Made by a program: the position numbers and the translations under genes. The notes below the pieces were generated by a model. The model saw only the letters and a list, made by a program, of their open reading frames with translations, was not told the origin of the DNA and searched no databases. This document shows positions 3,308 to 20,111 of a stretch of 24,817 bases of DNA, piece by piece (position 1 is the stretch's first letter; each line of letters begins with the position of its first letter). This DNA is from a virus (Duplodnaviria > Caudoviricetes). The stretch is taken from positions 1 to 24,817 of IMG/VR virus record IMGVR_UViG_3300020042_002391. One strand, 5' to 3'.

Positions 3308-3840
3308 AAGAGAATTGGGATCAAGCGTTTAAACAGATGCTCGCTTCAGAGGGCGGTTTTACAGACGATGACCGTGATAAAGGCAACCAACTACCGGATG
3401 GACGCAAAGGCAGCACCATGCTCGGCGTGACTCAATTTAATTGGGAGCGCCATCTTGGACACGAAGTCACGCACGACCATATGCGTCGCCTAACCCCTGC
3501 GGATGTGGAACCCCTGTACAAGAAGAAGTACTGGGACGTTGTGCGAGCCGACGAGCTACCAAGCGGGATTGACTACTTGGTGTTCGATATGGGGGTCAAT
3601 GCGGGTCCGGGGCGCTCTATCAAGCTACTGCAAGCTGCGGTGGGTGTAACGCCTGACGGTGGCTTTGGTCCGATCACGATGGCGGCTGTCCTTGCTGCTG
3701 ACCCTGTAAAGCTGATTGAGGACTTCAGCGATGCCAAGGAAGCGTTTTACCGTGGTCTTAATGATTTCCTCGTGTACGGCACAGGCTGGCTTAATCGTGT
3801 TGCAGCAGTTAAACAAAAAGCCTCAACAATGGTGGCATGA
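3304..3840 (+). CDS. Endolysin, glycoside hydrolase family 108 with C-terminal peptidoglycan-binding domain
   Basis: Catalytic EGG motif (SEGGFTDDDRDKGN), GxTMLGVTQ, YKKKYWD, FDMGVNAGPGRSIKLLQ, DGGFGPIT and C-terminal GWLNRV, all hallmark motifs of GH108 with a PG-binding-3 domain. Confidence 0.92.
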   Translation: MKENWDQAFKQMLASEGGFTDDDRDKGNQLPDGRKGSTMLGVTQFNWERHLGHEVTHDHMRRLTPADVEPLYKKKYWDVVRADELPSGIDYLVFDMGVNAGPGRSIKLLQAAVGVTPDGGFGPITMAAVLAADPVKLIEDFSDAKEAFYRGLNDFLVYGTGWLNRVAAVKQKASTMVA

Positions 3841-4391
3841 TGAAAATACTTACTGTAGTTAGCACCGTTATCTTGTTCTGGGTTTTAGCCTTATTTTCTA
3901 TTGCTCAAGCTCAAAATCTAGCCGTCTGTCAGGGTGAGTACGCCTTGTGTGCTGCGTCTCCTGCAACGCCCACGGGCAACTCCATTGTGGTGGGCAACAA
4001 GGTCTTTAAGGAAGGCATGGCTGTCTGCCCTGTCTTAGAAGGTTCAAGCATTGCAAACCTTGACTTGATGGGTGGTAGCTGTACTGCCGCCAAGAATAAA
4101 GTCTGGAGCCTGTTTGGTTTCCCCCCTCTGTCATCGTTCCCACAAGCCCCGACATGGGAAGTACAACCCGCCGTGGCTCGCACCTTTGTCACCACCGCAA
4201 CGTCTGGCATGAGCAACATGTGGTCGTTTGAATGCGTGAAGACCAAGAAGGTCAACGGGGTGCAGCTTGCTGACTGTTACGGTCCACTAAATGAGTCGCC
4301 CTTTGATGGTGGACATGTTAAAGTTGGCTCGACTGTTATTACTCAAGCGCCAGTAGGTGCAACCTTCCCAGTCGGTGGTAATTTACCGTAA
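3837..4391 (+). CDS. Secreted cysteine-rich protein of unknown function
   Basis: Sec-type signal peptide (MMKILTVVSTVILFWVLALFSIAQA|Q) and a mature part with 6 Cys. ATGA-coupled to the endolysin. Confidence 0.75.
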   Translation: MMKILTVVSTVILFWVLALFSIAQAQNLAVCQGEYALCAASPATPTGNSIVVGNKVFKEGMAVCPVLEGSSIANLDLMGGSCTAAKNKVWSLFGFPPLSSFPQAPTWEVQPAVARTFVTTATSGMSNMWSFECVKTKKVNGVQLADCYGPLNESPFDGGHVKVGSTVITQAPVGATFPVGGNLP

Positions 4392-4400
4392 GGTTTAGTT

Positions 4401-6308
4401 ATGCCGTTACAAAAATTAACTTTTAGACCGGGTGTAAACCGTGAGGGTACTAACTACGCAAATGAGGGTGGTTGGTACGACTGCGACAATATTCGGTTTC
4501 GTTCAGGTTTTCCCGAAAAGATTGGCGGTTGGGTGCGTTTGTCTGCAAGCACATTTCAAGGCGTATGCCGTGCGTTATGGAACTGGGTATTGTTGGCTGG
4601 AGACAACCTACTCGGTGTTGGCACAAACTTAAAGTATTACATTGAGAATGGCGGTGCATACTACGACATTACGCCAATACGCACCACCACGACTGGCACG
4701 GCAACTTTTGCAGCAACAAACGGTTCATCCGTTCTTACCGTCACTGATACTGCCCACGGGTGTCTTGTGGGTGATTTTGTCACCTACACGCTTGCTGTGT
4801 CTTTAGGCGGAGTAATTACTGCCACGGTGCTAAATCAAGAATATCAAATTGTTTTAGTACCCACAATAAACACTTACACCATTGACGTCACGACCATAGC
4901 TGATGCAAGCGATACAGGCAATGGTGGCGCATCTACGGTAGCAGCCTATCAAATTAATGTTGGTACAGTTACGCAGATTCCTATTCTTGGCTGGGGCGCA
5001 GGTGGTTGGGGTTTAGGCTACTGGGGCATTGGCGGAGCGTCAAACACTCAATTACGCCTGTGGTCAAATGATAATTACGGTCAAGATTTAGTTATTGCGC
5101 CTAGAAACGGCGAAATTTATTACTGGGCAGCAAGTAGTGGTCTTACAGCCAGAGCGCAATTTTTATCTGTTCTTTCTACTGCCGCAGGTTATGCTGGCGA
5201 TTATGTGCCAAATCAAACGCTTGAAGTGTCAGCGTCATCTATTCAAAGATTTGTTATAGCTTTTGGTGCAAATCCATACGAATCTGGAACGCCAAATACA
5301 ACATTTAACCCTATGTTAGTGCGTTGGTCTGATCAAAATAATCCATATGAATGGGTTCCTGCCATTACTAACCAGTCTGGTGAGTTTCCTCTTTCTCATG
5401 GCTCTTCTATCATTTCGTATATTAATACTCGTCAAGAGATTTTAGTTTGGACTGACTCCGCCTTATATTCTATGCAGTATTTAGGACCACCATATATCTG
5501 GGGTTTTAATATATTGATGGATAATATTTCCGTCATGTCGCCTAACAGCATGATTACTATTAACAGTATTACCTACTGGATGGGTGTTGATAAATTTTAT
5601 ATGTACGCTGGGCGTGTAGAGACGTTGCCCTGTTCATTGCGGCAATACGTTTTTAACGATATTAATATTTTACAAGCATATCAAGTGTTTTGTGGCAGCA
5701 ACGAAGGCTATAACGAAGTTTGGTGGTTTTATTGCTCAACAGATTCAGACGATGTGGACAAGTACGTTATTTACAACTACCTTGATAAGGTATGGTATTA
5801 CGGCTCAATGTCGCGCACAGCATGGTTAGATTCTAGTCTGCGTCAATATCCAATGGCAGCTAACTACGACACCAGTGCTTTAACCGGCAGAACCTTGTAC
5901 CACGAAGCTGACGTAGATGATGTTGCCGGTACGACGCCTGTAGCAATTGATGCGTACATTCAGTCGTCAGATTTTGATATTGGCGATGGACATAACTTTG
6001 GTTTTGTCTGGCGTATCTTGCCTGACATTAACTTTAACGGCTCAAACGTGGATCAGCCTTACGTCACCATGACCGTTAAACCTCGTCAAAACGCAGGTTC
6101 GGCTTATAGCGCATCCAACAGTCCTGAAGTGCAAAGCGCAGATAACTACGCAGTTAGCAAATCGTACAACATTCAATTATTCGACGGGCAGGTCTATACC
6201 CGCTTGCGGGGTCGGCAAATGGCGTTCCGTATTGAATCCACTGAACTTGGTGTGGCATGGCAGCTTGGCTCTCCTAGAATTGACATCAGACCGGACGGCA
6301 AGAGATGA
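4401..6308 (+). CDS. Tail hub / nozzle ('stabilisation') protein, analogous to P22 gp10 or T7 tail tubular protein B
   Basis: 635 aa, aromatic-rich and beta-propeller-like (VRWSDQ, EILVWTD, YWMG, EVWWFY, YVIYNY...WYYG), with N-terminal MPLQKL.FRPG and C-terminal RGRQMAFRI...RIDIRPDGKR. It sits before the internal virion genes and has an inserted TVTDTAHG..GDFVT beta-sandwich. Confidence 0.75.
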   Translation: MPLQKLTFRPGVNREGTNYANEGGWYDCDNIRFRSGFPEKIGGWVRLSASTFQGVCRALWNWVLLAGDNLLGVGTNLKYYIENGGAYYDITPIRTTTTGTATFAATNGSSVLTVTDTAHGCLVGDFVTYTLAVSLGGVITATVLNQEYQIVLVPTINTYTIDVTTIADASDTGNGGASTVAAYQINVGTVTQIPILGWGAGGWGLGYWGIGGASNTQLRLWSNDNYGQDLVIAPRNGEIYYWAASSGLTARAQFLSVLSTAAGYAGDYVPNQTLEVSASSIQRFVIAFGANPYESGTPNTTFNPMLVRWSDQNNPYEWVPAITNQSGEFPLSHGSSIISYINTRQEILVWTDSALYSMQYLGPPYIWGFNILMDNISVMSPNSMITINSITYWMGVDKFYMYAGRVETLPCSLRQYVFNDINILQAYQVFCGSNEGYNEVWWFYCSTDSDDVDKYVIYNYLDKVWYYGSMSRTAWLDSSLRQYPMAANYDTSALTGRTLYHEADVDDVAGTTPVAIDAYIQSSDFDIGDGHNFGFVWRILPDINFNGSNVDQPYVTMTVKPRQNAGSAYSASNSPEVQSADNYAVSKSYNIQLFDGQVYTRLRGRQMAFRIESTELGVAWQLGSPRIDIRPDGKR

Positions 6309-6556
6309 GTACTGGCACAACAAAATCCCCAAACTTACCAATTGCTCCACAAGAGTACAACAGAATATATCTTGAGCAACTAACAAACACATTGCGATTG
6401 TATTTTGCACAGTTAGATAATCCGGGTTTTTCAGCAGCAAGTGGTTTAAACTTAGACCTAAATACGCTTCCTACGCAGACAAGTCTTGCTGACCTACGGG
6501 TTGGCGATGTATATCGGGACACCACGGCAAGTAATGTTTTAAAGGTTAAGGTATGA
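6305..6556 (+). CDS. Small virion-associated hypothetical protein
   Basis: 83 aa with a PNLPIAPQEY...LRLYF motif. ATGA-coupled to both neighbours, at the position after the tail hub gene. Confidence 0.65.
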   Translation: MSTGTTKSPNLPIAPQEYNRIYLEQLTNTLRLYFAQLDNPGFSAASGLNLDLNTLPTQTSLADLRVGDVYRDTTASNVLKVKV

Positions 6557-6906
6557 ATATTGAAGAACTTGTTCAAGACCCAAAATATGTTCGCGTTGAA
6601 CATCCTTATGTAGAATTTGCAGAAGTTGATGACATTTGGGTCAGAGCTTATTCAATTGAAAAGTCTGAAAGTATTGCAGCGCAGCATGTTCATGCACATG
6701 ATCACATAACAATTGTTTCCCGTGGAACAGTTGAAGCTTGGCAAGATGGCGTTTTGACGGGCGTTTACACAGCCCCTGCAGTGATTACAGTAAAAGCAGG
6801 AAAGCACCACGCATTTAAAGCATTAACCGACGATGTAGTTTTTTGTTGCATACACAATCTTCGCGGCACTGGTCTTGAGTCGCCTGAAATCATGGAAGGG
6901 GTTTAA
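6553..6906 (+). CDS. Cupin-fold protein
   Basis: Cupin motif 1 (HVHAHDH..IVSRGTV) and motif 2 (ITVKAGKHHAFKAL), followed by FCCIH. Confidence 0.85.
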   Translation: MNIEELVQDPKYVRVEHPYVEFAEVDDIWVRAYSIEKSESIAAQHVHAHDHITIVSRGTVEAWQDGVLTGVYTAPAVITVKAGKHHAFKALTDDVVFCCIHNLRGTGLESPEIMEGV

Positions 6907-6908
6907 TT

Positions 6909-9710
6909 ATGCCTATTATGATAGGTTTGGCAATTGGCGCTGCTATGGGTGGCGGTATTGCTGCGTTGCGCGGTGGTAAAACAGACGACATACTTAAAGG
7001 CGCTTTAATAGGTGGTGCTACTGGTGCTGCTGGCGCAGGTATAGCTCCTTTGCTTAGTGGTGGTGCTGGTGCTGTTGGCGCTAGTGGTGCTAATGTTGCT
7101 CCCGCAGTAGCTAATTTATATGTTGAAGGTGCTGGAACTGCTGCTGCTAGTGCTGCCACCGCTTCTCCTACAGCTAGTTCAATTGCTAATCCGGGTTTTT
7201 TTGGCTCAGGTATTGGTAAATTTATTTCTGAAAACAAAATGCCTTTAGGTCTTGGTGCGGCTGGTTTGTTAATGGCTAATAAAGGCAATAATCAGAGTAG
7301 CCAACCTGAATCAGATTCGTACATCCGCCCATATGAGTTTAGTCAAGTTGAAAACCCTGACTACCAAGGAGCAGGGACGCCTTATTTTAATCAAGCATAT
7401 AAGGCTAAAACACCAATTAAAGCAAGTGATTTTGGAGCCACTACCGTTGCTAATGGCGGCGTTATCCGTATGGCTGAAGGTGGCGACGTAGGAATTGGTC
7501 AGTTTGAGCAAGACCAATTTAATAGACCTCAAGCAATGTCGCCACAAAACAATCCTACGCTTGAAGCTTTAGCATCTATTCAACAAGCACAGCAATCTTA
7601 TCAACCGCCCGCTGTATCGCAAGGCATTACACAACCGCTTATTCAGCCACAAATGGCTCAGGTTCAGCAGCGTTATGCCACTCCACAAAGAGCCGTACCT
7701 GCTGATTTCCAGTATCAAGCACCACAGTTTGTTTCATACGGGATTGGCGGCGGCGGTGGTAGTGGTGGTGGTTATGGTAGTTTGGTTGACCCAACAACAG
7801 GCAAACTCCCGACAACAGGCAGACCAATTAGTGGTGTTATGCCTGTAACGGGTACGAAAGATAAGCCATTTATGCCGACGGTAAACTTACCATATATGGC
7901 AGGTGCTACGGCTCCTTACAGCCCAGAAACTCCTACAAGCATTATCCCATCTACAGGCGAATTTAGAGCGCCTGTGCCTGAAACATCTTTAAATCCTGCT
8001 GGCGTAGTTGGGTATGATCATAACCCGCTTAAATCAGAAAACATTGGTCAAGCAGTGCTTCATCGCGGTACATCAGCGGGTGAAAGTGATGCCTATACAG
8101 TTCCAGTATCTCCTTATGCAAACACTGGATACGGCGGTATTGGTAGCGAATCAGGGGGAAATTATTCTAGTGGTTTAGGTTATTCAGGCGTTGAGCTTGA
8201 TCCCGGCTATAACAATTTAAAAGTTCCTACTTCTTCAGAAAACTTGGCTAATATTTATCAAGAAATGTTAGGTCGTGCGCCCGATGCATCTGGGATTGAA
8301 AGCTTTTCTAACATGGCTCCTGACCAAGTGATTAGTGCAATTATTGCATCACCTGAATATCAAGCTACAAATGGTCCTCCTCCTGAACCAACGTATTATT
8401 ATGGCGGTCAGGAAATGTATACACCCGAGTATGCACAAGTACGCCCAGATGATTATTATGATCCTAACCAAGGTTTTGGTGGTGGTGAGGCTGATGGCGG
8501 TTTAATAGCTGATAAACATCCTAGGTATGCAATGGGGGGGGGTATTGGTGGTTATTACCCTGAACCTGATGACAGCAATCATAACTTTGGTGGCATTGGT
8601 GCTTTAAACCAAGGTCCACAATACCCAATGCAAGGTATTGGCTACCGTGATGGTGGCATTATTGCGTTTAAAGATAGAGGTAAAGTTCCTGAACGTGACA
8701 ACAATGATGCGCCCACAGTTAGGGAGTTATTAGAAATATTGGGTAGTGACCGTGATAAATACGAGCGTTTAGCTAGGGGTGAAGAATATAACCGTAAGGA
8801 TTATTCCGCCAACGAAATACAAGCCGCAAAATTGTTGCACACTGCTAACAAAACGGAAAACCCTGAACGATACCTTGAGTCACTTAATCCGTTTCATGAC
8901 AACCAGCTTAATTATGCGTTAGCAAATACCAACCTCAAAGGATTTGTTAACCGAGATCAACCCAATACCACAATTATGCGGCGTATGGACGCTAGCACAT
9001 TGCCGCATGAATTAACTCATTCATTGCAGTTGCATGATGAAAATCGTGGCAATAAAATTAGTAGGGAGCTTTACCCTTATGTTTCAAATTTAAATAGTGA
9101 AACTCAAGATAAAATATTTGGTAAAGCCGATAATCGGTTTGCCAATCCAAAAGAAGTTTATGCAAATTTAAACGCCTACGCATTGCTTCAAAACGCCGCA
9201 GGTGGAGATTTTGTAAATTCACCTGAAGGTCGTGCATTATTGCCTGATAGAAAATCGCAAGGTCAGTATTATGCAAACACAATGCCCGGCGTTCAAAGCA
9301 TCTACGGTTATCGGGAAGACTCAAAGATTCCAGAAGACAAGTTTAAACGTGACTCTCGTGATTCCTACGCAACGCAACTTGCTAAATACGCAAAACACAA
9401 AACTAAAGATTACGCAATGGGTGGTCAGTTAGGCGGTTATTCTGATGGTGGGCAACTACTAAGAGGACCCGGCGATGGAGTCAGCGATGATATTCCTGCT
9501 CAAATTGGTAACCGCCAGCCTGCTCGTCTTGCTGATGGTGAGTTTGTCGTTCCTGCTAGGATTGTTTCTGAACTGGGAAATGGGTCTACAGATGCCGGTG
9601 CTAAAAGACTGTATGCCATGATGGATCGCATTCAAAAGAACAGAGGCAAGACTGTTGGCAAAGACAAGGTAGCCATTAACTCTAGGTCAGATAAATACTT
9701 ACCCGCATGA
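6909..9710 (+). CDS. Modular internal virion / ejection-type protein with glycine zipper, DUF4214-like segment, HExxH zincin-like module and conserved C-terminal GPGDGxSDxIPA domain
   Basis: N-terminal Gly/Ala hydrophobic zipper; IYQEMLGRAPDASG...IIASPEY (about 8241-8360); HELTH at 9006-9020 with downstream EVYA; C-terminal GPGDGVSDDIPA...RLADGEFVVPA; repeated xAxGG motifs. Confidence 0.65.
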   Translation: MPIMIGLAIGAAMGGGIAALRGGKTDDILKGALIGGATGAAGAGIAPLLSGGAGAVGASGANVAPAVANLYVEGAGTAAASAATASPTASSIANPGFFGSGIGKFISENKMPLGLGAAGLLMANKGNNQSSQPESDSYIRPYEFSQVENPDYQGAGTPYFNQAYKAKTPIKASDFGATTVANGGVIRMAEGGDVGIGQFEQDQFNRPQAMSPQNNPTLEALASIQQAQQSYQPPAVSQGITQPLIQPQMAQVQQRYATPQRAVPADFQYQAPQFVSYGIGGGGGSGGGYGSLVDPTTGKLPTTGRPISGVMPVTGTKDKPFMPTVNLPYMAGATAPYSPETPTSIIPSTGEFRAPVPETSLNPAGVVGYDHNPLKSENIGQAVLHRGTSAGESDAYTVPVSPYANTGYGGIGSESGGNYSSGLGYSGVELDPGYNNLKVPTSSENLANIYQEMLGRAPDASGIESFSNMAPDQVISAIIASPEYQATNGPPPEPTYYYGGQEMYTPEYAQVRPDDYYDPNQGFGGGEADGGLIADKHPRYAMGGGIGGYYPEPDDSNHNFGGIGALNQGPQYPMQGIGYRDGGIIAFKDRGKVPERDNNDAPTVRELLEILGSDRDKYERLARGEEYNRKDYSANEIQAAKLLHTANKTENPERYLESLNPFHDNQLNYALANTNLKGFVNRDQPNTTIMRRMDASTLPHELTHSLQLHDENRGNKISRELYPYVSNLNSETQDKIFGKADNRFANPKEVYANLNAYALLQNAAGGDFVNSPEGRALLPDRKSQGQYYANTMPGVQSIYGYREDSKIPEDKFKRDSRDSYATQLAKYAKHKTKDYAMGGQLGGYSDGGQLLRGPGDGVSDDIPAQIGNRQPARLADGEFVVPARIVSELGNGSTDAGAKRLYAMMDRIQKNRGKTVGKDKVAINSRSDKYLPA

Positions 9711-10117
9711 ACGTACAGCATGTTCCAATTCAGTATGTGAATCAAACGTGGGATGCTGTTTCGGGGTTTTTAAAAGCGGCAATTGAGCAGCAAACGGGCG
9801 ATAAAGATTACACGCTAGACCAAGTTCAGGCTTATGTAACTGGTGGTCAGTGGATTCTGTTAGTTGCAGTAGAAGATGACAAGATTATTGGTGCAGCAAC
9901 GGTCAATTTGTTTAATCGACCAAACCATCGTGTAGCGTTTATTACTTACATTGGTGGCAAGTTAATTGTTAGCAAAGACTCGTTTAAACAGATGTGCCAA
10001 GTTTTACAAGGCTTTGGGGCTACGTCTATAGAAGGTGCGGTTAATGACGCTGTTGCTAGATTATGGCAACGCTTTGGGTTCGTTGAAAAATACAAAATTG
10101 TTGAGGTTGCGCTATGA
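9707..10117 (+). CDS. GNAT-like acetyltransferase-fold protein (positional analogue of P22 gp14 / T7 gp13)
   Basis: 136 aa with WILLVAVEDDKIIGAATV, AFITYIGG and C-terminal ARLWQRFGF, a GNAT-like pattern. Coupled directly upstream of an ejection protein. Confidence 0.65.
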   Translation: MNVQHVPIQYVNQTWDAVSGFLKAAIEQQTGDKDYTLDQVQAYVTGGQWILLVAVEDDKIIGAATVNLFNRPNHRVAFITYIGGKLIVSKDSFKQMCQVLQGFGATSIEGAVNDAVARLWQRFGFVEKYKIVEVAL

Positions 10118-11295
10118 GATATAATTATTTTGACATGTTACCCGAACGGGCTTTTTTAAAAGTCGGTGGCAAGATTATGCCTCAAGGTGGAGGAAGTAGC
10201 GCACCCACTTCAACTACGGTTCAAAATACTTCTATACCTGAATACGCAAAGCCTTATGTAGAAAGCACATTAGGTAAAGCCGCTGCGGTTACTGATCTTA
10301 CTAACAATCCGTATCAGCCGTATAAAGGGCAGCAAATTGCACAATTTACCCCAATGCAAAACCAAGCGTTTCAAAACGTGGGTAGCCAACAACTAGCGCC
10401 TCAGATAGCTGATGCATCAAACATTGCATATCAAACAGGTCAATACGGTCTAGGGACACAAGGCACAGCAGCACAACTTCAAAACGCATCATTAGGCTAT
10501 GGAGCAATGGCAGCGGGTGCAGGGGATCGTTACGCACAGCAAGCAACTAATCCATACGCCTCACAAGCGTACATGAACCCGTATTTGCAAGCTTCGCTTC
10601 AGCCTGCGTTACAAGAAGTGCAGCGTCAGTATGACATTACCGGCACTCAGCAGATGGGCAATGCTTCGCGCTCAGGTGCGTTTGGTGGGAGCCGTGAAGC
10701 GTTGATGGCAGCAGAGAATCAACGTAACAAAAACCTTGCCATGAACCAGATGATTGGACAGGGATACAGCACGGCTTTTGATAAAGCTAATCAAGCACAA
10801 CAGTTTGGCGCTACCCTTGGACTTCAGGGCTTGCAGGGTGGACAACAGGGCGTTCAAGGTGCTGTAGGTGCAGGTCAGTACGGGTTGCAAGGCTTAGGTC
10901 AAGCAGGAGCTTCTGCCAGCACTCTTGGTCAGTTAGGGCAGACTCAGTTTGGTCAAGAACAAGCGGCAAACCAAGCTATGGTGTCAGCAGGAACCCAGCA
11001 ACAAGCCTTGCAACAAAAAGGGCTAGACGCTGCTTACCAGCAATATCAAGCACAGTTAAACTATCCGTATCAACAACTTGGCTTTATGTCCGACTTGTTG
11101 CGTGGTCTGCCATTGACTCAACAGTCTCAATCTATGTACCAGAACCCAAGCATGGTGTCTCAAGCTGCCGGTATTGGTACGGCGGGTATGGGTCTTTATG
11201 GCATGAATAAAATGATGAATAGTGCAAAAGGCGGTCAGATTAAAGAAAGTGACGGGCTAGACACACTTGGCATTTACAATGCTATGAAAGGATAA
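10114..11295 (+). CDS. DNA ejection / pilot protein (P22 gp7-like position)
   Basis: Q/G/A-rich helical protein with GGG after a ~24-aa N-terminal extension, IPEYAKPY, YMNPY, GAFGGSR and a C-terminal Gly-rich hydrophobic helix. Confidence 0.7.
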   Translation: MRYNYFDMLPERAFLKVGGKIMPQGGGSSAPTSTTVQNTSIPEYAKPYVESTLGKAAAVTDLTNNPYQPYKGQQIAQFTPMQNQAFQNVGSQQLAPQIADASNIAYQTGQYGLGTQGTAAQLQNASLGYGAMAAGAGDRYAQQATNPYASQAYMNPYLQASLQPALQEVQRQYDITGTQQMGNASRSGAFGGSREALMAAENQRNKNLAMNQMIGQGYSTAFDKANQAQQFGATLGLQGLQGGQQGVQGAVGAGQYGLQGLGQAGASASTLGQLGQTQFGQEQAANQAMVSAGTQQQALQQKGLDAAYQQYQAQLNYPYQQLGFMSDLLRGLPLTQQSQSMYQNPSMVSQAAGIGTAGMGLYGMNKMMNSAKGGQIKESDGLDTLGIYNAMKG

Positions 11296-11298
11296 AAA

Positions 11299-13098
11299 AT
11301 GAGCATCCAACAAAACATGGCGTCAGATATTTATAGAATGGCTGATAGTGTCCATAGATCAAGAGATATTGCAGCTTTTCAACAATCGTTAGCCCAATCT
11401 ATTAAAAGTGGCGCTGTTGAGTCTTATGTTGGTATTCCTGTACTTCAGTCTCTTACTCAAAAATTAAAACTTGCCCAGCAAAAAGAAGCTATGGCTATGG
11501 CTGCGCCACAGGATCAGCAACAACAAGGAGTACCCCTTGCTGCACAAGTTATGCAGGATGCTGGACAAACAGACGAAGACGAACAAAGATATGCCGGTAT
11601 AGATGAGCTACGTACAAACTTGCCTACCGAAGACGACGATGATAATGAATATGCCAACGGTGGAATTATTGCGTTTAGTGGTAAAAATAACGACCAAGTT
11701 GTAGATTCTAATTCTGATCCATTGGTAGAGCGGTTGCGAGAGGATGACCCAAAAAGTTATGAACGTTTTATGAGCGGGAATACTATATCTCCAGAGTTTG
11801 GTGGGTTTGACGCAAATCCTAAAACTGTTTTTGAACGTAACTCGCCAGAATACGATCCTGTACCAACAACACCGGCTGGTCGTTTTATTGCTAATCAAGC
11901 TACTGACATTAAAAGCGGCATAGCAAATTATGATCTTCGCCAAAGATTGTATGAACAATACAGTAAATCAGCCGACCCTTTTTCAAGCGTGTCAAACCCT
12001 GAAAGAGAAGCTGGGCGCGATATGCTCAGTCGTATTAAAGACATGTCCCCCGCAGAATTACGTGCATTAGACCGACAGGGCAACGTTTCTGCATCGGCTA
12101 CTGTTTCTACTGTACCAAGCGCCCCACCACCTCAAGAATTATCAACATTTAATCCGCCAAATGATGCAGGAGTAGGAGTAGCAGGACTTCCAGCCGCACA
12201 AAATGTTCAGATTGCGCCAGCTAAACAAGGTGCTGGTACTGCCGCTCCTGCTGGTGGTGAAAGACTTACGCCAAGAGTTGGGCTTGAAAATGCCCCACCT
12301 ACTTTAGCTCAAGCGGAAGCCGTTGCTGGTAAATCTCCCGCCGCTGCAAAAGCTATTAGCGCAGCAGATGAATACATAGCTATGCTTAAAAAGAGTGGCG
12401 AAAGTGTTGGACGTGAAAAGAAAGAAGCTTTCTACATGGCACTTATTAGTGGTGGTCTAGCAGCCGCTGGTGGTACATCGCCTAATGCTTTGGCTAATAT
12501 CGCTGCGGGTATGGTTCCTGCTACTCAACAGTACCAAAAAGTTATTGCTGGTATTCGTAAAGATGATCGTGAGCGTCTTGAGAAACTTATGAGCGCGGGT
12601 CTTAAGAAAGATGAATTTGCACTTAAAGCTGAAGAGATTGGTATTAACCGTCAGAAAGCTAAAGATTGGTTTGAAGTAATGACGGAGCGTAATAATGTTA
12701 TGCGTTCTCGTGGTGGTGACAGCGATTTAAAATTACAGGCCGAAGTAAGAAAAACTGAACAAATGTATGGTGGGTTAATTGGTAAAGAACAAACCGGATT
12801 TGATAACTACCTTAAAGCAAATCAAATATATGATAGGATCGACCCAACTAATGTGCCTCCCAGTTTGAAAAAAGGTTATGACAATTACGCTAGAAAAGTT
12901 GAAGGCTATCAAAATAGAATTGATAATTTACACCAACAAAAAAATAAACGTATTGAAAGAGTAACGGGCGAAACATATAGTGAAGAGCCAAGTAGCAGTG
13001 GGAAAGTCCCAACTATTGCAAATCAAACAGAATATGATAAATTACCGAAAGGCACACAATATAAAGACCCTAATGGCGTACTACGTACAAAAGGTTAA
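11299..13098 (+). CDS. Internal virion / ejection protein
   Basis: 599 aa with YANGGIIAF, a Pro/Ala linker, a hydrophobic Gly-rich segment (ALISGGLAAAGGTSPNALANIAAG), a coiled coil and C-terminal EYDKLPKGTQYKDPNG. AAGGA SD upstream; lies between two other putative ejection genes. Confidence 0.65.
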   Translation: MSIQQNMASDIYRMADSVHRSRDIAAFQQSLAQSIKSGAVESYVGIPVLQSLTQKLKLAQQKEAMAMAAPQDQQQQGVPLAAQVMQDAGQTDEDEQRYAGIDELRTNLPTEDDDDNEYANGGIIAFSGKNNDQVVDSNSDPLVERLREDDPKSYERFMSGNTISPEFGGFDANPKTVFERNSPEYDPVPTTPAGRFIANQATDIKSGIANYDLRQRLYEQYSKSADPFSSVSNPEREAGRDMLSRIKDMSPAELRALDRQGNVSASATVSTVPSAPPPQELSTFNPPNDAGVGVAGLPAAQNVQIAPAKQGAGTAAPAGGERLTPRVGLENAPPTLAQAEAVAGKSPAAAKAISAADEYIAMLKKSGESVGREKKEAFYMALISGGLAAAGGTSPNALANIAAGMVPATQQYQKVIAGIRKDDRERLEKLMSAGLKKDEFALKAEEIGINRQKAKDWFEVMTERNNVMRSRGGDSDLKLQAEVRKTEQMYGGLIGKEQTGFDNYLKANQIYDRIDPTNVPPSLKKGYDNYARKVEGYQNRIDNLHQQKNKRIERVTGETYSEEPSSSGKVPTIANQTEYDKLPKGTQYKDPNGVLRTKG

Positions 13099-13103
13099 CC
13101 ATA

Positions 13104-16100
13104 ATGGCGAATTTCTGGGACAACGATCCTGAAGTTACAGGTGGTAAAAATACGTCTAATTTCTGGGCAAACGATTCGGTTGTAGCAGAAGAGAAACCAA
13201 AAAAAGGTCAACAACGCGCCGCTGCAGACGCGCCTGATTTTTCTCGTGGTATGGGTAACATCCCCGGTGGCATCCAAAATATATATGGTGCGGCTAAAAC
13301 TGTAGCAGGCGTTGGTGCTAAAAAGTTAGGCTTTGAAGATACTGGCACAAGTTTGATCAAGAGTGGTCTTGAGTCAATGGAAGCTGGTGAGTCTAAACAA
13401 CTCGTAAAAGAAAGTGACGAGTTTACCAACGCTTGGGAAAAAGGTATTGGTACAGTCATTACTGATTGGTTGCCATATCAGATGGGCGCAGGAGTTGGTA
13501 ACTTAATTGAGACCCTTGGTGCAATGGGTATTGGTGCGGTGGCTGGTGCTGGTGTTGGCTCTTTACCCACTGCTGTTGCTGCAGGTCTTGGTAAAACATT
13601 ACTTAAAACAACCGTAAAAGAAACAGCAGAAAAAATATTAAAAGACCAAGGTGAAGAAGAAGCACAAAAGTATGTTGCTAGAGAAGCCAAGAAAGCCCTT
13701 ATTTCTATGGGCGCAACCGCTGGTCTAGGTGGACAAGCCGCGCTTCATGGTGTTGGTGAAGTGGGCGGTCGGGCAATTGAAGAAGCTCAAGAACGTGGCG
13801 GGTCGGCTGAAGATATTAATCTTGATAAAGTACTACCGATGGCTGGTGTTCATGCCGTTGCTGATTTTATATCTAACAAGATTTTATTAAATGCAACCAA
13901 ACCTATTAAACCCGCCGATAAAAAAGTATTGGATTCATTAACGCTTGAGATAGGTAAACGTGTTTTTATTACTGGCGCTAAAGAGTCTGTACCAGAAACT
14001 GTTCAATCAGTTGCCGAGCGTTTTGGCGCTGAGCTATCTCTATCCGATGCAGGAGCTATCAAAGAGTACATTAATACCATAGCTGCATCGTTTGGTATGT
14101 CTGTTATCCCCGGCGGTATTGGTGCTGTACGTTCTAAATTAGCTGCGTCTGTGCCTGAAGATAAAACAAAAACACAAGAAGACGCGCTGATTAAAGCTGG
14201 TGAGCAACCTGTTGGCGAGACCACAACCGAAGCTGGTACAGAAACTGAATTGCCACCGTTTAGTCCGGTGTTAGTTAACGGTATTGTATTTAATTCACAA
14301 GCTGACTTAGATGCATACAACCAAAACCCTGCTGCGCCAGTAGGAGCGACCTCAACGTCTGAAGAAACACTTGCTGCTGAAATAGCAACAATGGAAGCTA
14401 AATATTCCAGTCGTGAAGAAGACATTAAAAACAAAAAGGGCGGTAACAAAGCGGTTAAAAATAGAATTAACTCTAACGCAATTTTAAAAAAAGAAATAGA
14501 CGCTAAGAAAGCAGAGCTTGCTGCCGCAACTGCAACTGTTACAACCCCTGCGCCTAGTGCGGATGTTGACGGTACTAACTTAACGCCCGGCGCTAACGGG
14601 CAAGTAACACCCCCTGCTGCTCCAGTGCCTCCTGTTGTTGAGACCCCTGCTGAAACTCCTGCAAGAGAATACACTGCTCCAGAACAAGCTGCTGTTGATT
14701 TAGTTAAAGCTGTTGATGCTGGTGGTGTACCAACCGATACTCGCAAAATAAACAAAATTGCAAGAGACCTTGGGTTAGAAGTTTCTACTAAAGCTAGACC
14801 AGAAGATACGTTAAATCGTATCAAAGATGCTGTTGGGCGTATTGATACTACACAGGTTGAAACTTCTGCTGCACCTGTAGCTACCGAAGTAGTTAAAGAA
14901 ACTCCGCCGCAACAACAAGCCCCGTTGCCTACAGCGCGGGAAGCTACGCCCGAAGAACAAAAAGCTATTGATCACATTGATGGTATTGATAACTTAGGCA
15001 AATCATTTTCGCCCGCGCAGGCAAAGAAAGTTGCTCAAGCAGTGGGAATTCAAATACCTAAAGGAACTAAAGAGAAGCCAGTTACATTACAAGACATTAA
15101 TCAAATCATACGTAATTATGTTGGTAACTTAGAAGGCGTGTTGGCTGGGCGCATTCGTCAGATTGCGCCTAATGTGTTTGAAGGCACTTTTACCACTAAC
15201 ACTAAAAAAGTAAAAGATCGTGTATCTTCAAAATTACCAACAGAAGAGCCTGAAGGTAACCGTGTTGCAACGCCTGAAACAGAAAAAGAAACGCCTCCGC
15301 TTGCGGGCGCTAAGTTAGATGAAGCTATTAAAGCTGCTAATGCTGCTAATAAAACCCGTACTGTTACTACAGAAGGTAATGTTACGACTGTAACGTCTAA
15401 ATTAAAGAAAGCTATTAGTTTTATTGTTGCTGCACCGTTAAAATTTGTTAAAGGCTACAAACCAACTAAGACTCCTTCGGCTGAGAATTTTTTAAATCAA
15501 ACTAGCTATTATGGAGAAGGTGCGCCCAGTGATATAAATCAAGCCATAACTATGGCTGCGCATGATATGGCTGCGGATGCAATAGATTCTTTGGATGATA
15601 AAAAAGGATTAACGCCAGCATTACGTGCTATTGCAGGAAAAGGTGTACCAATCAATCGCCCTGATCAACTTATGTCAATGGACAAGTTGGTTGAGCTTTA
15701 TAAAAAATTTGTAAATAAAAGAAATGGTTTTGCAAATGTTGGTGGTGACGGACGTACTAAAGCCGCAGCTAACCGTCAAGCTTTTATAGAGTCGTTAGCC
15801 CCTGAGCAACGTGCTAAGTACGATGCTGTTTATGAAAAAGCTTTTGTTCAAGCTATTAAAGACGATATTTATGTAAGGGACACAACTGAGTCTGACAAAC
15901 GTAAAGGGATAGTAGCAGCAACTAAAGAAGCACAGTTAGCAAGGCGTCGCGCTAAATACAAAGAACGTTTGATTGCTGACATGCAAGAGCAAGTTGAAGA
16001 GGCTAAAGAAACTGATCAAGAAAGAGATGAAAAGACAACAAAAGCTTTTGAAGAAGCTGAACAAGCAGCTCTTGAAGCCCGTGAAAAACCATTATTAGAT

Positions 16101-19100
16101 TCAGAAGCTAAATTAGATCGCGAAGAAGAAAAACAAGAGGTTGCTGAGGCTAAGTCAGAAGAAGACAAACGCCTTGAGTCTGCTATTAATGGGGGCGAAG
16201 GCGTTAAAGGTGTGCTGCAAATTCTTGCAGACTATAGTTATTCTACAGACAAACCACATAGTGCTAGAAACGTAGGTGTGTTTGCAAAAAGTTTGTTAAA
16301 CCTTTTAAAGCAAACTGGTTTTCTTGATCAAGTTAAATTAACAATCTCATTTGGTAAAGTAGAAGGTACAAATGACGGTAAGTTTAATCCAGTTAACAGC
16401 CGTGCAACGTTGCAAGGCGTTAAAGGTGTATACACAGGTGAACGTGATTTAGGCGAGACTGTGTTGCATGAAATCATGCATTATTTTCTTGACCATGTGT
16501 TTGATAACCCAGACGCATACATTAAAAGTTTGCCCGTAGAAAAACAAGCAGAAGCTCAGGCTGCTATTAACCGCATTAGACAGAATTGGGCGCGAGCAAG
16601 AACATTTTTACCCAACAGTTTTCAGCCTAGTATTTCAACTCTTAAAGAGTTTGTTGCTGAAGTTATGTCTAATTCAAAACTTCAATCCGCACTCATAGCT
16701 CTTGATGCTAATACGGGTAGTGACAAGACGTACGCACCTAAAGATAATTTCTTTACACGGTTTGTTAAAAATATAACGGCTGCAATGGGTATTAAACCTA
16801 AAGATGTTGCAGTTAACTATAAAGAATTAATTGAAGATATTACTAGAGTTATATCGTTACCGAGCAAAGGTATTCGTGGTAACGAAGTATCGTACTCAGC
16901 ACAAAAAAATAAAAAAACTCAGCAAACAAAGAAAGCGTCAACCCCGTTACGTACTGGCAATATTGGTATTGGTGAGAAAAACCAAACTAGCAATGAAGAG
17001 TACATGTTGCCTGAAGAAGTTGTGGGGCGCGATAAAGGCTTTTGGAGAAAGTTGTTTACAACTGAAAAGGGTTGGCAAAATGTTGCTAGGCTTTTTCAAA
17101 ATGATCGTTACCCCATTAAGTCTTGGCAGGATACGTTAGAACTTGCTGACGCAATTGTAAACGACCTGTCTGCTAAGTTTAATAACATCTACACTCAGAT
17201 AACTTTGTCATCTGGTCGTGCTAAAGATTTGTATGAACGTCACGTAGCGGGTCCCGCACAAGCTTTAGACACAGCAATTAATAATTTTGCTAAAGCAACA
17301 GGTCTTGATATAAAAGCTGCTATTGCACAGCTTCATATGATTGTTGAGGCAATACATGAAAGAGAACGTCGTGTAGTTAAATTTATGTTGCTTGTGCCGT
17401 TAGATAGCACATCTAAAGTTGTTAACTCAAAAGGTAAATTAATTTCTCCTGCAGCTCGTAGGCAAGAAATAGTTGGCGAGCATGACAATAATAAAAAAGG
17501 CGAGTTAGATGACCCTAACTTGACGCCTGCACAGGCACGGCAGTTGCGTACTGAACTTGATTACCTTGTTAAAAACTACGCTAAAGAGACTGGGTATAGT
17601 CCTTCAGGTATTAAAGTTGCTCTGGATGGTAACAAACGTAAAAACACAGATATAAAGAACGAAGCTTATAACGTAGTAGGTATTGATCCTGACACCGCCG
17701 ATGCACGACGTGCTGAAATTGCTAGTAAGGATAATAAGTTTAAAGCAGAGATTGATGAAGTGTCTGCAGCACTTAAAGGTTTGCATGAAGCTACTAAGAC
17801 TCTTGATATGCAATCAAACTATTGGTCTAAGCCTGTTAGCAACCGTGTGGCGTTTTACGGGTTTGAAAACTACATTCCGTTAAAAGGCAGGAAAGGCGAG
17901 AAGGTTACAACTATTGATGAGATGTTAGATTTTACAAGCTCACGTATGGGCAGTGAAGTTGATAAGCCACAGAGCGCGTTCGGCGGTCGTATGAGTGTGG
18001 CTACAAACCCATTGCTACAGAGTATGTCTGATGCAACTCGCTCTGCTCTTCGTGCTGGGCGTAAAAATATTACACAGTCAATTATTAATGCTATTGACCA
18101 AGGACTGCTTAATGGTAGAGCTGAATATAAAAAAGAACCTATTCCTTTTGAACAACGCTACGCCATAGTTCCCGATGAAAATACAATCTTTCATTACGCT
18201 AAGAATGGTGAAATTACGCTTATTAAAATTAAGGATAAGGCTCTTTTAAATTCTATTCGTCGCACTTATAAAGCAGTCAACCCATTGGTTGAAATTGCAA
18301 ACACTATCACTAGTACGATTGGGCAGTTTCACACACGATACAACTATTCATTTGGTCCAATGAACTTTGTGCGAGATATTCTTACCAATGCTTTTGCAAT
18401 GGGTGTGGACCTTGGACCAACAAAGTCATTAGCTTTCATTGGTGATATTTCAGCAAAGGTAGCCAACGGCGGATTATTTAAAGCAATGCGGTTTATTGCC
18501 ATGTACAACCGTGGTGATTTTACAAGTATTGCAAACCTTGCTAAGCAAGACCCGTTCGTACAAGACATGCTTGACTTCTACACAGAGGGCGGCATGGTAA
18601 CGTACATTGATGGTATTGCTATAAAGTCTAATTTTGAAGCCCTGCAAAAAGAACTTGGGCGTAGTGGCATTATGAAGACTAAAGAGCAGGTGGATAAGTT
18701 TGTTGATATTTGGACAAACATGTTTGAGCTTGCAAGCCGTGCCGCAGCTTATGGTGTAGCTAAAAGTAGTTTTATGGCAGACGGTATGTTAGAGCAACCG
18801 GCAAGAACTAAAGCCGCTGCTTACGCTAAGAACCTTGCTAACTTTGAACAAGTTGGTGAGATTGGTAAGACAATGGGTGCGTTCTATATGTTCTTTAGAC
18901 CCGCTGCAACGGGTGCTGTCCGTGCAATTGAGGCAGTAGCGCCAGCCTTCCGGTCACTAGACTCTGCGTTAAAGAGTTTGCCTCAAGCTATTCAGATAGG
19001 TGCAACACCAGAAGCCAAAGTGCAACGTGATAATTTTATTAAAAACTACAAGCAGAAACAACAAAACGCTCGGATTATGACAGGTGCATTGTTTGGTTTA

Positions 19101-20111
19101 GGTATGACAGCCTACGCTATGTCTATGGCTATGTCACCTGACGATGAGTTGGGACGCAACAAAGTTAAGTCAGACAACATGCAGCAGTGGTCGCGCTATG
19201 CACGGTTCCATTTACCTAATGAGTTAGGGCTGGGTAAAGATGTTGTGTTCCAAATTCCTTGGGGCTTCGGGCTTGGCGCGTTTGCTGCTGCTGGAGCGCA
19301 GATGGCGGCTGTGGCGTTTGGTAAGAGTACTATGGCTAATGCAGCAGCTAACATTGCATTGCAAATTTCACTTGACTCGTTTGTGCCAATTCCTGTGTCA
19401 AAGATGAACCCGCTAGAAGACCCACTTAACTTTGCGTTAGATTCAATTGCACCAAGCACTGTAAGGCCCATTTTAGAGTTTGCGTTAAATAAGAATGGTC
19501 TAGGACAGAGTATTTACAACGACTCTAACCGTCGTATTGGTGATGCGTATGTGGGTGGGGACAACATTCCTCAAGCTTACAAAGACGTAGCACGTACGTT
19601 TGCACAAATTACTAATGGTTATATAGATTGGAGTCCAAACAGTATGTATTTCTTAGCTAATAGCTACGCTGATGGTGTATCACGCATTCTTGAAACAGCT
19701 TACGGTTTTACTGATCTTGCTAGTGGCAGAAAAGAATTTAATATTAAAGCTGATCTACCATTAGCTGGTTCGTTCTTTGGTACTCGCTCAAACGTAGACT
19801 CAAGAGAGTTTTCTGCTGTTGAAAAACAAATCTTAGCTAAAGAACAGCGGTTAAATATGTTCAAAGGTGATCCGGAAGCAACGATGCGATATCATTCAGA
19901 GTACCCAATGGATGAGATGATAGTTAAAAAATTCAATACTATGGTCAATGGTGAACTCAAACGTCTGCGTACCGATGCAAAGAATTTCCGTTTGATGGAA
20001 GGTTTATCGCCTAAAGAACGTGATTCAATTGTTAAGATGATTACCCTTCAGCAAAACCTGATCAAGAACAACATCATTGAGACGTTTAAAGCATACGACA
20101 TTGAACCCTAA
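13104..20111 (+). CDS. Large polyvalent-type virion/ejection protein with zincin-like metallopeptidase and LPD38-like C-terminus
   Basis: 2335 aa with a Gly/Ala-rich N-terminal region, low-complexity linkers and a charged coiled coil. VLHEIMH (HEIMH 16467-16481) is followed by EFVAE (16647-16661). The C-terminal region has NFVRD, F..F..AA..G, QIPWGFGLG, DSFVP and E..LNKN..G..IY motifs, resembling the LPD38 region. It is the last and largest gene of the late operon. Confidence 0.75.
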   Translation: MANFWDNDPEVTGGKNTSNFWANDSVVAEEKPKKGQQRAAADAPDFSRGMGNIPGGIQNIYGAAKTVAGVGAKKLGFEDTGTSLIKSGLESMEAGESKQLVKESDEFTNAWEKGIGTVITDWLPYQMGAGVGNLIETLGAMGIGAVAGAGVGSLPTAVAAGLGKTLLKTTVKETAEKILKDQGEEEAQKYVAREAKKALISMGATAGLGGQAALHGVGEVGGRAIEEAQERGGSAEDINLDKVLPMAGVHAVADFISNKILLNATKPIKPADKKVLDSLTLEIGKRVFITGAKESVPETVQSVAERFGAELSLSDAGAIKEYINTIAASFGMSVIPGGIGAVRSKLAASVPEDKTKTQEDALIKAGEQPVGETTTEAGTETELPPFSPVLVNGIVFNSQADLDAYNQNPAAPVGATSTSEETLAAEIATMEAKYSSREEDIKNKKGGNKAVKNRINSNAILKKEIDAKKAELAAATATVTTPAPSADVDGTNLTPGANGQVTPPAAPVPPVVETPAETPAREYTAPEQAAVDLVKAVDAGGVPTDTRKINKIARDLGLEVSTKARPEDTLNRIKDAVGRIDTTQVETSAAPVATEVVKETPPQQQAPLPTAREATPEEQKAIDHIDGIDNLGKSFSPAQAKKVAQAVGIQIPKGTKEKPVTLQDINQIIRNYVGNLEGVLAGRIRQIAPNVFEGTFTTNTKKVKDRVSSKLPTEEPEGNRVATPETEKETPPLAGAKLDEAIKAANAANKTRTVTTEGNVTTVTSKLKKAISFIVAAPLKFVKGYKPTKTPSAENFLNQTSYYGEGAPSDINQAITMAAHDMAADAIDSLDDKKGLTPALRAIAGKGVPINRPDQLMSMDKLVELYKKFVNKRNGFANVGGDGRTKAAANRQAFIESLAPEQRAKYDAVYEKAFVQAIKDDIYVRDTTESDKRKGIVAATKEAQLARRRAKYKERLIADMQEQVEEAKETDQERDEKTTKAFEEAEQAALEAREKPLLDSEAKLDREEEKQEVAEAKSEEDKRLESAINGGEGVKGVLQILADYSYSTDKPHSARNVGVFAKSLLNLLKQTGFLDQVKLTISFGKVEGTNDGKFNPVNSRATLQGVKGVYTGERDLGETVLHEIMHYFLDHVFDNPDAYIKSLPVEKQAEAQAAINRIRQNWARARTFLPNSFQPSISTLKEFVAEVMSNSKLQSALIALDANTGSDKTYAPKDNFFTRFVKNITAAMGIKPKDVAVNYKELIEDITRVISLPSKGIRGNEVSYSAQKNKKTQQTKKASTPLRTGNIGIGEKNQTSNEEYMLPEEVVGRDKGFWRKLFTTEKGWQNVARLFQNDRYPIKSWQDTLELADAIVNDLSAKFNNIYTQITLSSGRAKDLYERHVAGPAQALDTAINNFAKATGLDIKAAIAQLHMIVEAIHERERRVVKFMLLVPLDSTSKVVNSKGKLISPAARRQEIVGEHDNNKKGELDDPNLTPAQARQLRTELDYLVKNYAKETGYSPSGIKVALDGNKRKNTDIKNEAYNVVGIDPDTADARRAEIASKDNKFKAEIDEVSAALKGLHEATKTLDMQSNYWSKPVSNRVAFYGFENYIPLKGRKGEKVTTIDEMLDFTSSRMGSEVDKPQSAFGGRMSVATNPLLQSMSDATRSALRAGRKNITQSIINAIDQGLLNGRAEYKKEPIPFEQRYAIVPDENTIFHYAKNGEITLIKIKDKALLNSIRRTYKAVNPLVEIANTITSTIGQFHTRYNYSFGPMNFVRDILTNAFAMGVDLGPTKSLAFIGDISAKVANGGLFKAMRFIAMYNRGDFTSIANLAKQDPFVQDMLDFYTEGGMVTYIDGIAIKSNFEALQKELGRSGIMKTKEQVDKFVDIWTNMFELASRAAAYGVAKSSFMADGMLEQPARTKAAAYAKNLANFEQVGEIGKTMGAFYMFFRPAATGAVRAIEAVAPAFRSLDSALKSLPQAIQIGATPEAKVQRDNFIKNYKQKQQNARIMTGALFGLGMTAYAMSMAMSPDDELGRNKVKSDNMQQWSRYARFHLPNELGLGKDVVFQIPWGFGLGAFAAAGAQMAAVAFGKSTMANAAANIALQISLDSFVPIPVSKMNPLEDPLNFALDSIAPSTVRPILEFALNKNGLGQSIYNDSNRRIGDAYVGGDNIPQAYKDVARTFAQITNGYIDWSPNSMYFLANSYADGVSRILETAYGFTDLASGRKEFNIKADLPLAGSFFGTRSNVDSREFSAVEKQILAKEQRLNMFKGDPEATMRYHSEYPMDEMIVKKFNTMVNGELKRLRTDAKNFRLMEGLSPKERDSIVKMITLQQNLIKNNIIETFKAYDIEP

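Follow-up and report, generated by a model that had tools for sequence, protein, structure and literature searches.

The 24,817-base virus record IMGVR_UViG_3300020042_002391 (Caudoviricetes), analysed over its full length and referred to here as the window, encodes three probable ejection proteins of 933, 393 and 599 residues that share a short motif. Its general form is [bulky]-[Ala/Ser]-x-Gly-Gly-x-[Ile/Val/Leu], and tandem copies stand 8–13 residues apart. The three proteins are strings of exchangeable modules with the motif at the joints. The motif is enriched in them, concentrated in their slots in related phages, conserved at the protein level and used as a border at which cassettes are exchanged. 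Moreover, the C-terminal GPGDG/GEFV module of the 933-residue protein is homologous to a module of tape-measure proteins. With modest confidence, we favour the interpretation that the motif is a maturation site which is cut just before its Ala, and that the module is a candidate reader or catalyst; that the window proteins themselves are cut, and in this register, we infer.

Distribution of the motif in the window

The 933-residue protein (6909..9710, + strand, as are all features of the three proteins) comprises an N-terminal glycine zipper, variable low-complexity segments, a zincin cassette and the C-terminal module. Three motif pairs were located in it, namely V/ANGGVI and M/AEGGDV (7446..7490), E/ADGGLI and Y/AMGGGI (8487..8546), and Y/AMGGQL and Y/SDGGQL (9411..9458), where the slash marks the predicted cut. 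The new N-termini would be Ala181 and Ala189, Ala528 and Ala541, and Ala836 and Ser845, respectively. A further string, Y/RDGGII, opens the zincin cassette. The 393-residue protein contains S/AKGGQI (11221..11241, Ala371), and the 599-residue protein contains Y/ANGGII (11650..11670, Ala119).

The six strings quoted in the original prediction were all recovered by translation at their positions. Its pattern [YM]AxGGxI proved too strict and fits two sites only, whereas the looser AxGGx[IVL] fits eight: six in the 933-residue protein and one in each of the other two. One of these matches, at residue 12 inside the glycine zipper, is probably incidental. Shuffling of the three proteins gave an expectation of 0.45 matches, or 0.89 with Gly runs kept, and eight were reached in 0 of 2000 shuffles. 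The 17 other open reading frames (ORFs) contain no match, compared to 0.88 expected. Because AxGGx[IVL] was picked post hoc, a second test was based on a weight matrix from relatives only (90 seeds from loci L009–L080), with which 7,835 positions in 18 window proteins were scanned. The five highest-scoring positions are motif sites of the 933- and 599-residue proteins; all five reach at least 9 bits, compared to a shuffled mean of 0.49 such sites (maximum 2 in 100 shuffles). Two findings count against a clean restriction: two positions elsewhere also reach at least 9 bits (YTEGGMV in a 2335-residue protein and YAGGKEV in a 285-residue protein), and four of the sites named in the original prediction score just 6.8–8.8 bits.

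Conservation of the motif in related phages

The distribution over gene slots was counted in 80 related IMG/VR loci. The motif is present in 80 of 80 homologues of the 933-residue protein, in 65 of 76 of the 393-residue protein and in 15 of 15 of the 599-residue protein. In other slots it was found in 5 of 73 upstream structural proteins (0.1 per 1000 residues), in 4 of 13 homologues of the 2335-residue giant (0.15 per 1000 residues), in 4 of 17 lysins, and in none of 37 GNAT-like proteins or seven primases. All 120 database homologues of the 933-residue protein have 2–10 sites beyond residue 60 (median 5). The expected enrichment in these probable virion proteins is borne out both by the shuffles that keep Gly runs and by the concentration in three slots across the 80 loci.

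In 153 distinct instances of the motif, all four codons are used at the Ala and at the second Gly, close to background; the first Gly is nearly always encoded by GGC or GGT. As codon use follows the background, selection acts on the peptide, and a DNA-repeat origin is ruled out by the free codon use at the Ala and the second Gly. Descent of the motif from Met-Ala-x-Gly-Gly starts of former genes was also considered. Such starts were found in 6 of 845 ORFs, all of them ejection proteins beginning with M-S-G-G-G, and this origin is not supported.

Exchange of cassettes at the motif

The clearest exchange involves a mobile HExxH zincin-like cassette (8643..9410, residues 579–834), which begins with Y/RDGGII. 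Compared to the homologue P0050, these residues form an exact insertion that begins at Y-RDGG. Six of 200 homologues contain the cassette. It occupies three different positions in the carrier and is flanked on both sides by a motif or near-motif. Among 52 homologue pairs, four clean insertions of at least 50 residues were found, and all four have both ends within 8 residues of a motif (random expectation 5%); all four are the zincin cassette and represent at most three events. Three further zincin copies were identified among 443 candidates. Two of them lie, bounded by motifs, in a different protein of 324–336 residues, and the third is cut off at its N-terminus. All nine copies examined retain the HELTH string and, downstream of it, NPxE.

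The original prediction had taken the motif sites as domain boundaries in these proteins. As cassette borders shared by the probable ejection proteins they stand up well: the zincin is cleanly inserted between motifs, and it is found again in another protein within motif borders. The predicted segment labels fared less evenly. The zincin is recognizable by its HELTH string, and comparison of the cassette with Pfam and PDB gave no match; the N-terminal glycine zipper (6921..7040) is a weak match to PF05433 (E 0.049); and the DUF4214-like stretch (8229..8366) stays below the cut-off here (E 0.006–0.02) and exceeds it in 6 of 47 relatives scanned. The ends of BLAST segments lay within 6 residues of a motif in 20% of cases compared to 12%, a test confounded by the fact that conserved motifs extend alignments; the count of clean insertions was therefore relied on instead.

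Other enzymes occupy corresponding places in the 599-residue slot. Among 47 proteins scanned, an SLT domain (L001) and a glucosaminidase (L008) sit between motifs, and a second SLT domain (L037) has a motif upstream only. The gene for the 393-residue protein was classed by length in 76 loci: it is fused to the next gene in 27, split from it in 32 and incomplete in 17. In 26 of the 27 fused proteins two motifs lie 60–135 residues apart. In the split forms, 26 of 32 loci have a motif in the last 35 residues of the 393-type protein, and 22 of 32 have one at residues 75–135 of the following gene. This retention around the gene break fits cutting and tagging equally.

At the N-terminus, 105 distinct relatives (P0051, P0081, P0082 and others) have in residues 1–60 another domain in place of the plain glycine-zipper start, with the consensus GRGxD..LVH..P.EV..L...GG.L..NP.TGLPEA. 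Neither hhalign nor hmmsearch linked these 105 sequences to the C-terminal module. Two homologues of the 933-residue protein contain a PT-HINT self-splicing or self-cleaving domain (P0118, residues 935–1045; P0372, residues 699–810), a second processing device within the same type of carrier. In L012 (3389-7321) and L021 (5386-9516), an unassigned ORF of 1310–1376 residues is inserted directly upstream of a short module carrier (252–258 residues). Close relatives of the module carrier also occur on short contigs (L085–L103) binned with many unrelated freshwater taxa; these are likely misbinned phage contigs, so that no host can be read from their bins.

The C-terminal GPGDG/GEFV module

The module (9438..9707) is led by Y/SDGGQL, the second motif of the last pair, and its residues 845–933 are 72–100% identical in the best 120 homologues (517–1346 residues). 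It matches 10,202 clusters (clustering at 50% identity) at E 0.001. Its first 35–50 residues match the tape measures 8zdo_S (E 1.7e-12) and 8rk3_A (E 0.0016). By means of hhalign, the module was linked to GEFV-type tape measures (96.9%, E 2e-10), and the module family to lambda gpH (76%, E 2e-5), for which plain hmmsearch gave 3.7 bits only. At a lenient E of ≤1, 669 phage records match, and tape measure is the main annotation among the 60 rows listed. Synechococcus phage MinM2 and Caulobacter phage RW are cultured phages with the module. A motif stands ahead of the module in 377 of 378 proteins of its own family and in 80 of 80 tape-measure-type loci, 78 of which have a second motif within 60 residues. 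Nine columns, including Ser859, Asp860 and Glu878, are invariant in 81 module sequences, which had been gathered with patterns that partly contain those residues.

AlphaFold2 models of the module had a mean predicted local distance difference test score (pLDDT) of 54.3 with 48 sequences and of 54.5 with 81. With these models, Foldseek returned nothing at E 0.001, and a VIA comparison with 48,161 chains gave a best Z of 3.4, with 48 of 50 rows on C-terminal helices only; at a pLDDT of about 54, both outcomes say nothing on the fold.

Register of the cut in T5 pb2 and a predicted cut site in lambda gpH

A cut in the tape measure pb2 of T5 was located by mass spectrometry after R1127 (Linares et al. 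2023, PMC10038345). The string at this cut is FVPR/AEGGMM, with 92 residues remaining, and all nine distinct T5-like variants retain it. As in the register proposed for the window proteins, the cleaved bond immediately precedes A-E-G-G-M-M, and a short Gly/Glu module comes next. The cut precedes Ala and leaves an A-x-G-G N-terminus; it is therefore not a double-glycine leader cut. Both products, pb2* and pb2C, are retained in the virion, and each acts on its own during ejection; the available text calls the module a muralytic metallopeptidase motif and does not remark on the motif at the cut site (PMC10038345). In contrast to the single site of this siphophage ruler, the window has up to seven sites per protein in three podophage-type proteins.

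Lambda gpH is processed to gpH* and gpHC. The article consulted in part (PMC12617516, 2025) states that cut site and catalyst are unknown, and that no rulers other than those of T5 and lambda are known to undergo cutting. Across residues 733–782, gpH contains F-ATGG, the module and Y-ATGG, which is the motif/module/motif layout with a module homologous to the merged family; it differs from the window proteins in being a tail ruler and not head cargo. A predicted cut before Ala734 would release 12.5 kDa, compared to the approximately 14 kDa reported (PMC12617516). For JBD30, the text consulted speculates from a prediction tool, with no measurement, on a cut at residue 1066, and describes a predicted hook formed by residues 1022–1066, a stretch overlapping the module (PMC11445458). 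The string 'cleav' does not occur in the texts obtained for Douge (PMC13033339) and TP901-1 (PMC5099701).

The crAss001 protein gp45

The cargo protein gp45 of crAss001 resembles the 933-residue protein in several respects: its gene follows that of a tail-end protein, it has at least six motif sites, and its portal-bound domain begins at a motif Ala and contains a GE-V-V strand. It differs in that the window module has neither a Pfam nor a profile match to PF25725. Motifs were found at positions 207, 261, 330, 425, 560 and 826, and at 370 by eye; gp46 and gp49 contain none. The portal-bound domain was modelled as residues 425–552 (Bayfield et al. 2023, PMC10172136, PDB 7QOG), and thus opens exactly on Ala425 of N/AFGGWL and stops ahead of the next motif. 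Twelve copies of this C1 domain lie on the portal wing, and the other modelled piece, residues 214–245, is located in the tail at a distance of about 420 Å (PMC10172136); it lies between the motifs at 207 and 261. The article treats gp45 as a single chain threaded through the portal, 'cleav' is absent from its main text, and the gp45 peptides named there (79–101, 181–190, 275–300 and 307–320) cross no motif.

The matrix-assisted laser desorption/ionization (MALDI) peak lists of 13 gel bands of crAss001 virions (PMC6235969) were matched again, with trypsin, keratin and matrix peaks dropped by eye. Bands 3–9 correspond to gp50/gp47, gp49/gp44, gp20, gp26/gp22, gp22/gp25, gp25 and gp23, and bands 11–13 to gp32, gp36 and gp29. 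In bands 5–8 (about 100–77 kDa by order), where gp45 (91 kDa, 12 copies) would run, it obtained 3, 4, 3 and 1 matches. The shuffled means are 3.3, 2.9, 2.5 and 0.75, so that these matches are at chance level; in the same bands gp20, gp26, gp22 and gp25 were clear, with 12, 22, 25 and 14 matches. That full-length gp45 is missing from these peak lists fits cutting weakly. The 15 and 35 kDa bands are gp29 and gp36 and hold no gp45 fragment. Bands 1 and 2, the highest of the gel, match gp44 together with gp34 and gp40, which suggests a tail-end complex resistant to sodium dodecyl sulfate.

In the ESM Atlas, crAss_CARG1 was listed as the nearest named family (0.85–0.86), which is a lead only. PF25725 (crAss_CARG1) did not match the window protein at E values up to 10, and across five module-holding genomes it gave one weak match, elsewhere. 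For a comparison of folds with 7QOG chain M, both models, at a pLDDT of about 54, are too low in confidence. On the crAss-like contigs L149 and L151, in-frame stops in a conserved cargo domain lie at Gln-like positions, which suggests a recoded stop codon.

Interpretation of the motif

Cutting before the motif Ala would split the three ejection proteins into separate pieces during particle assembly; from the 933-residue protein, products of about 17, 36, 4, 29 and 9 kDa and three short peptides are predicted. The GPGDG/GEFV module, with its conserved Asp and Glu, would bind the motif and, assembled into an oligomer at the tail tip or portal, likely catalyse the cut; alternatively, a host or prohead protease may cut the motif. 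A new cassette (zincin, lytic transglycosylase or glucosaminidase) could be dropped between two motifs and packaged as part of the carrier, and cutting would free it in pieces small enough for the tail channel. The role of the module as motif binder and likely catalyst is the most speculative step and, given cutting, about as plausible as its opposite. A broader proposal is that the module, 50–90 residues long, represents an undescribed miniature peptidase family of long- and short-tailed phages which forms oligomers on the portal or within the tail tip and cuts x/A-x-G-G in cis and trans. Lambda gpH and T5 pb2 would then owe their maturation to this missing enzyme, and in more than 10,000 protein clusters it would drive a plug-in polyprotein system for cargo that is injected. 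Because the catalyst step is evenly balanced given cutting, and cutting itself is only moderately probable, we regard this broader proposal as rather unlikely.

Several observations speak against cutting or against the module as its agent. The sole mapped cut is one T5 site, from which cutting in the window phage would have to be extrapolated. The modules of T5 pb2C and of the crAss001 C1 domain were not linked to the window module by hhalign or hmmsearch (E 0.23 and 0.4, and 0.07–0.1 in further comparisons), so that it is the motif which carries the transfer to the window proteins. The position ahead of the motif Ala is occupied by residues as different as Y, M, G, A, F and L. The analysis revealed no known peptidase signature, and a Hint- or Ntn-type mechanism is disfavoured because Ala cannot act as a nucleophile. 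In 51 of 52 modules of the Caulobacter-RW type, the protein ends in Y[LM]xGGxx, 1–3 residues after the Gly-Gly, where a cut would free almost nothing. In lambda gpH, M-RDGGL at 842 falls within residues 819–848 aligned for 8iyk_H and hence looks uncut; together with the RW-type C-termini, this makes some motif-like strings look like ligands, not release sites. In crAss001, the first modelled residue may simply mark the edge of a domain, with no cut involved, and a gp45 fragment was found in none of the 13 bands, among which no band near 21–29 kDa had been excised; the motif-free cargo protein gp46 is itself supported by one ambiguous peak only. A mixed state is possible, in which the module binds all motif-like strings and only some are cut.

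A credible, less probable account is that the motif is an uncut docking strand. The module would bind it in cis and in trans, the carrier would bring the remaining ejection proteins together at the portal (or at the tail tip) and determine the sequence in which they leave, and the T5 cut would be a local special case. The 12 copies of C1 on the portal wing (PMC10172136), the extreme C-terminal strings of the RW-type modules, the lead to crAss_CARG1 and the split 393-residue homologues, which keep the motif and a conserved helix-like tail with little downstream in 26 of 32 loci, all fit docking. It is harder to reconcile with the fact that the T5 cut and the start of the crAss001 model coincide exactly in register, with the gel devoid of full-length gp45, and with cassettes flanked at both ends, which a tag would not need; nor was homology of the module to crAss C1 detected. 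The scarcity of the motif in the 2335-residue giant, the largest of the probable ejection proteins, counts against docking and also weakens the general capsid-loading tag that the original prediction had offered as an alternative, as does its absence from crAss001 gp46 and gp49.

It is improbable that the motif is merely a flexible turn-and-strand linker, spread by duplication as a recombination seam with no specific partner or cut. The tandem spacing, the indel ends on the motif and the Gly-rich flanking segments would suit such a seam, whereas codon use close to background excludes a DNA repeat, the motif count exceeds that of shuffles keeping Gly runs, and T5, lambda and crAss001 all retain this string. 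The original prediction had proposed a shared protease site of the double-glycine type. A protease site is still the best reading; the double-glycine type is not, since the T5 cut falls before the Ala, three residues ahead of the first Gly. Processing after Gly-Gly in the manner of bacteriocin leaders, or cutting by the encoded zincin, could draw on the invariant Gly-Gly and on the HExxH cassette in the same protein. Nevertheless, the sites are internal and repeated, unlike a single N-terminal leader, a C39 match was found in 0 of 19 ORFs scanned (the record being 38% complete), and the zincin is too rare among the homologues to be a general processing enzyme when every database homologue has at least two motif sites. 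We consider either variant very improbable.

Comparison with known processing systems

In SPN3US (PMC10052503, consulted in part), one short and often repeated motif likewise marks several unrelated internal head proteins for cutting. There, the motif is A-X-E and lies on the other side of the bond, the protease is known (gp245), and propeptides are removed instead of cassettes being separated. The string conserved in the window proteins is A-x-G-G with a variable preceding residue, not the A-X-E of prohead proteases, and the head genes lie outside the window. P22 offers three ejection-type genes in a row (gp7, gp20 and gp16), with a processed small ejection protein whose new N-terminus is rich in Gly-Gly; it differs in that gp7 receives one dispensable N-terminal trim by the host protease OpdA, and no shared internal motif or module is described in the text consulted (PMC8402733). 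The proposed system of the window would work like tape-measure maturation and like the motif-directed processing of SPN3US, and by these comparisons is a member of neither family. In the open-licence full text of PMC and bioRxiv, the scope of the search (subscription literature lay outside it), no description of the shared motif or of a catalyst was found.

Genomic context of the three proteins

The window spans the whole record, whose completeness is estimated at 38%. The order of genes on the + strand is a probable tail fibre, a GH108 endolysin, a virion structural protein of 635 residues (4401..6308), the 933-residue protein and then the ejection genes: a GNAT-like protein (9707..10117), the 393-residue DNA ejection protein (10114..11295), the 599-residue probable ejection protein (11299..13098) and the 2335-residue giant with a C-terminal LPD38 domain (13104..20111). 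Short-tailed phages such as P22 have an ejection-gene block of similar order, and this likeness, together with one PHROG match, suggests that the 933-, 393- and 599-residue proteins are virion cargo. The match is that of the 393-residue protein to PHROG 4287 (DNA ejection protein, E 4.6e-16), a family of the P22/APSE ejection type; comparison of the 933- and 599-residue proteins with PHROG gave no match. No portal gene was identified among the window ORFs, and no tape-measure or tail-tube family matched in the window. With an ejection protein and an LPD38 giant as neighbours, the 933-residue protein is not a tape measure proper.

The upstream structural protein matches PHROG 3287 and may be a tail hub, and the motif content of its homologues is at background. 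The GNAT-like protein is a weak Pfam match and may resemble P22 gp14. The 393-residue protein occupies a gp7-like slot, is fused to the 599-residue protein in 27 of 59 classifiable loci, and ends in the motif and a conserved tail of 20–30 residues. In split gp7-like proteins (window 11224-11292), this short tail after the motif reads GL..L[AG][LIM].N[MA] and is a candidate helix for packaging or pairing. The N-terminus of the 393-residue protein (window 10114-10200) has a leader of 20–40 residues with the variant string L-KVGGKI, followed by a Gly/Ser run. In relatives the leader string is K-KEGGKI, and several begin right at M-S-G-G-G; the leader is reminiscent of the removable leader of P22 gp7. 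The 2335-residue giant has a single motif-like site of 11 bits at residue 1827 and also holds an internal HExxH string, LHEIMHY. A cupin-like gene (window 6553-6906; 7 of 80 loci) and a Cys-rich gene of 184 residues with a signal-like start (window 3837-4391; 3 of 80 loci) lie within the virion/lysis block.

Significance

If the motif is a maturation site, exact predictions follow, namely a new N-terminus at Ala734 in lambda gpH and seven new N-termini in crAss001 gp45. Cutting of gp45 would explain how two of its parts come to lie on opposite sides of the portal, about 420 Å from each other. Given the 10,202 clusters and the tape measures in hundreds of cultured phage records, the rule would have a broad reach, and it would show which released pieces to study as injected enzymes.

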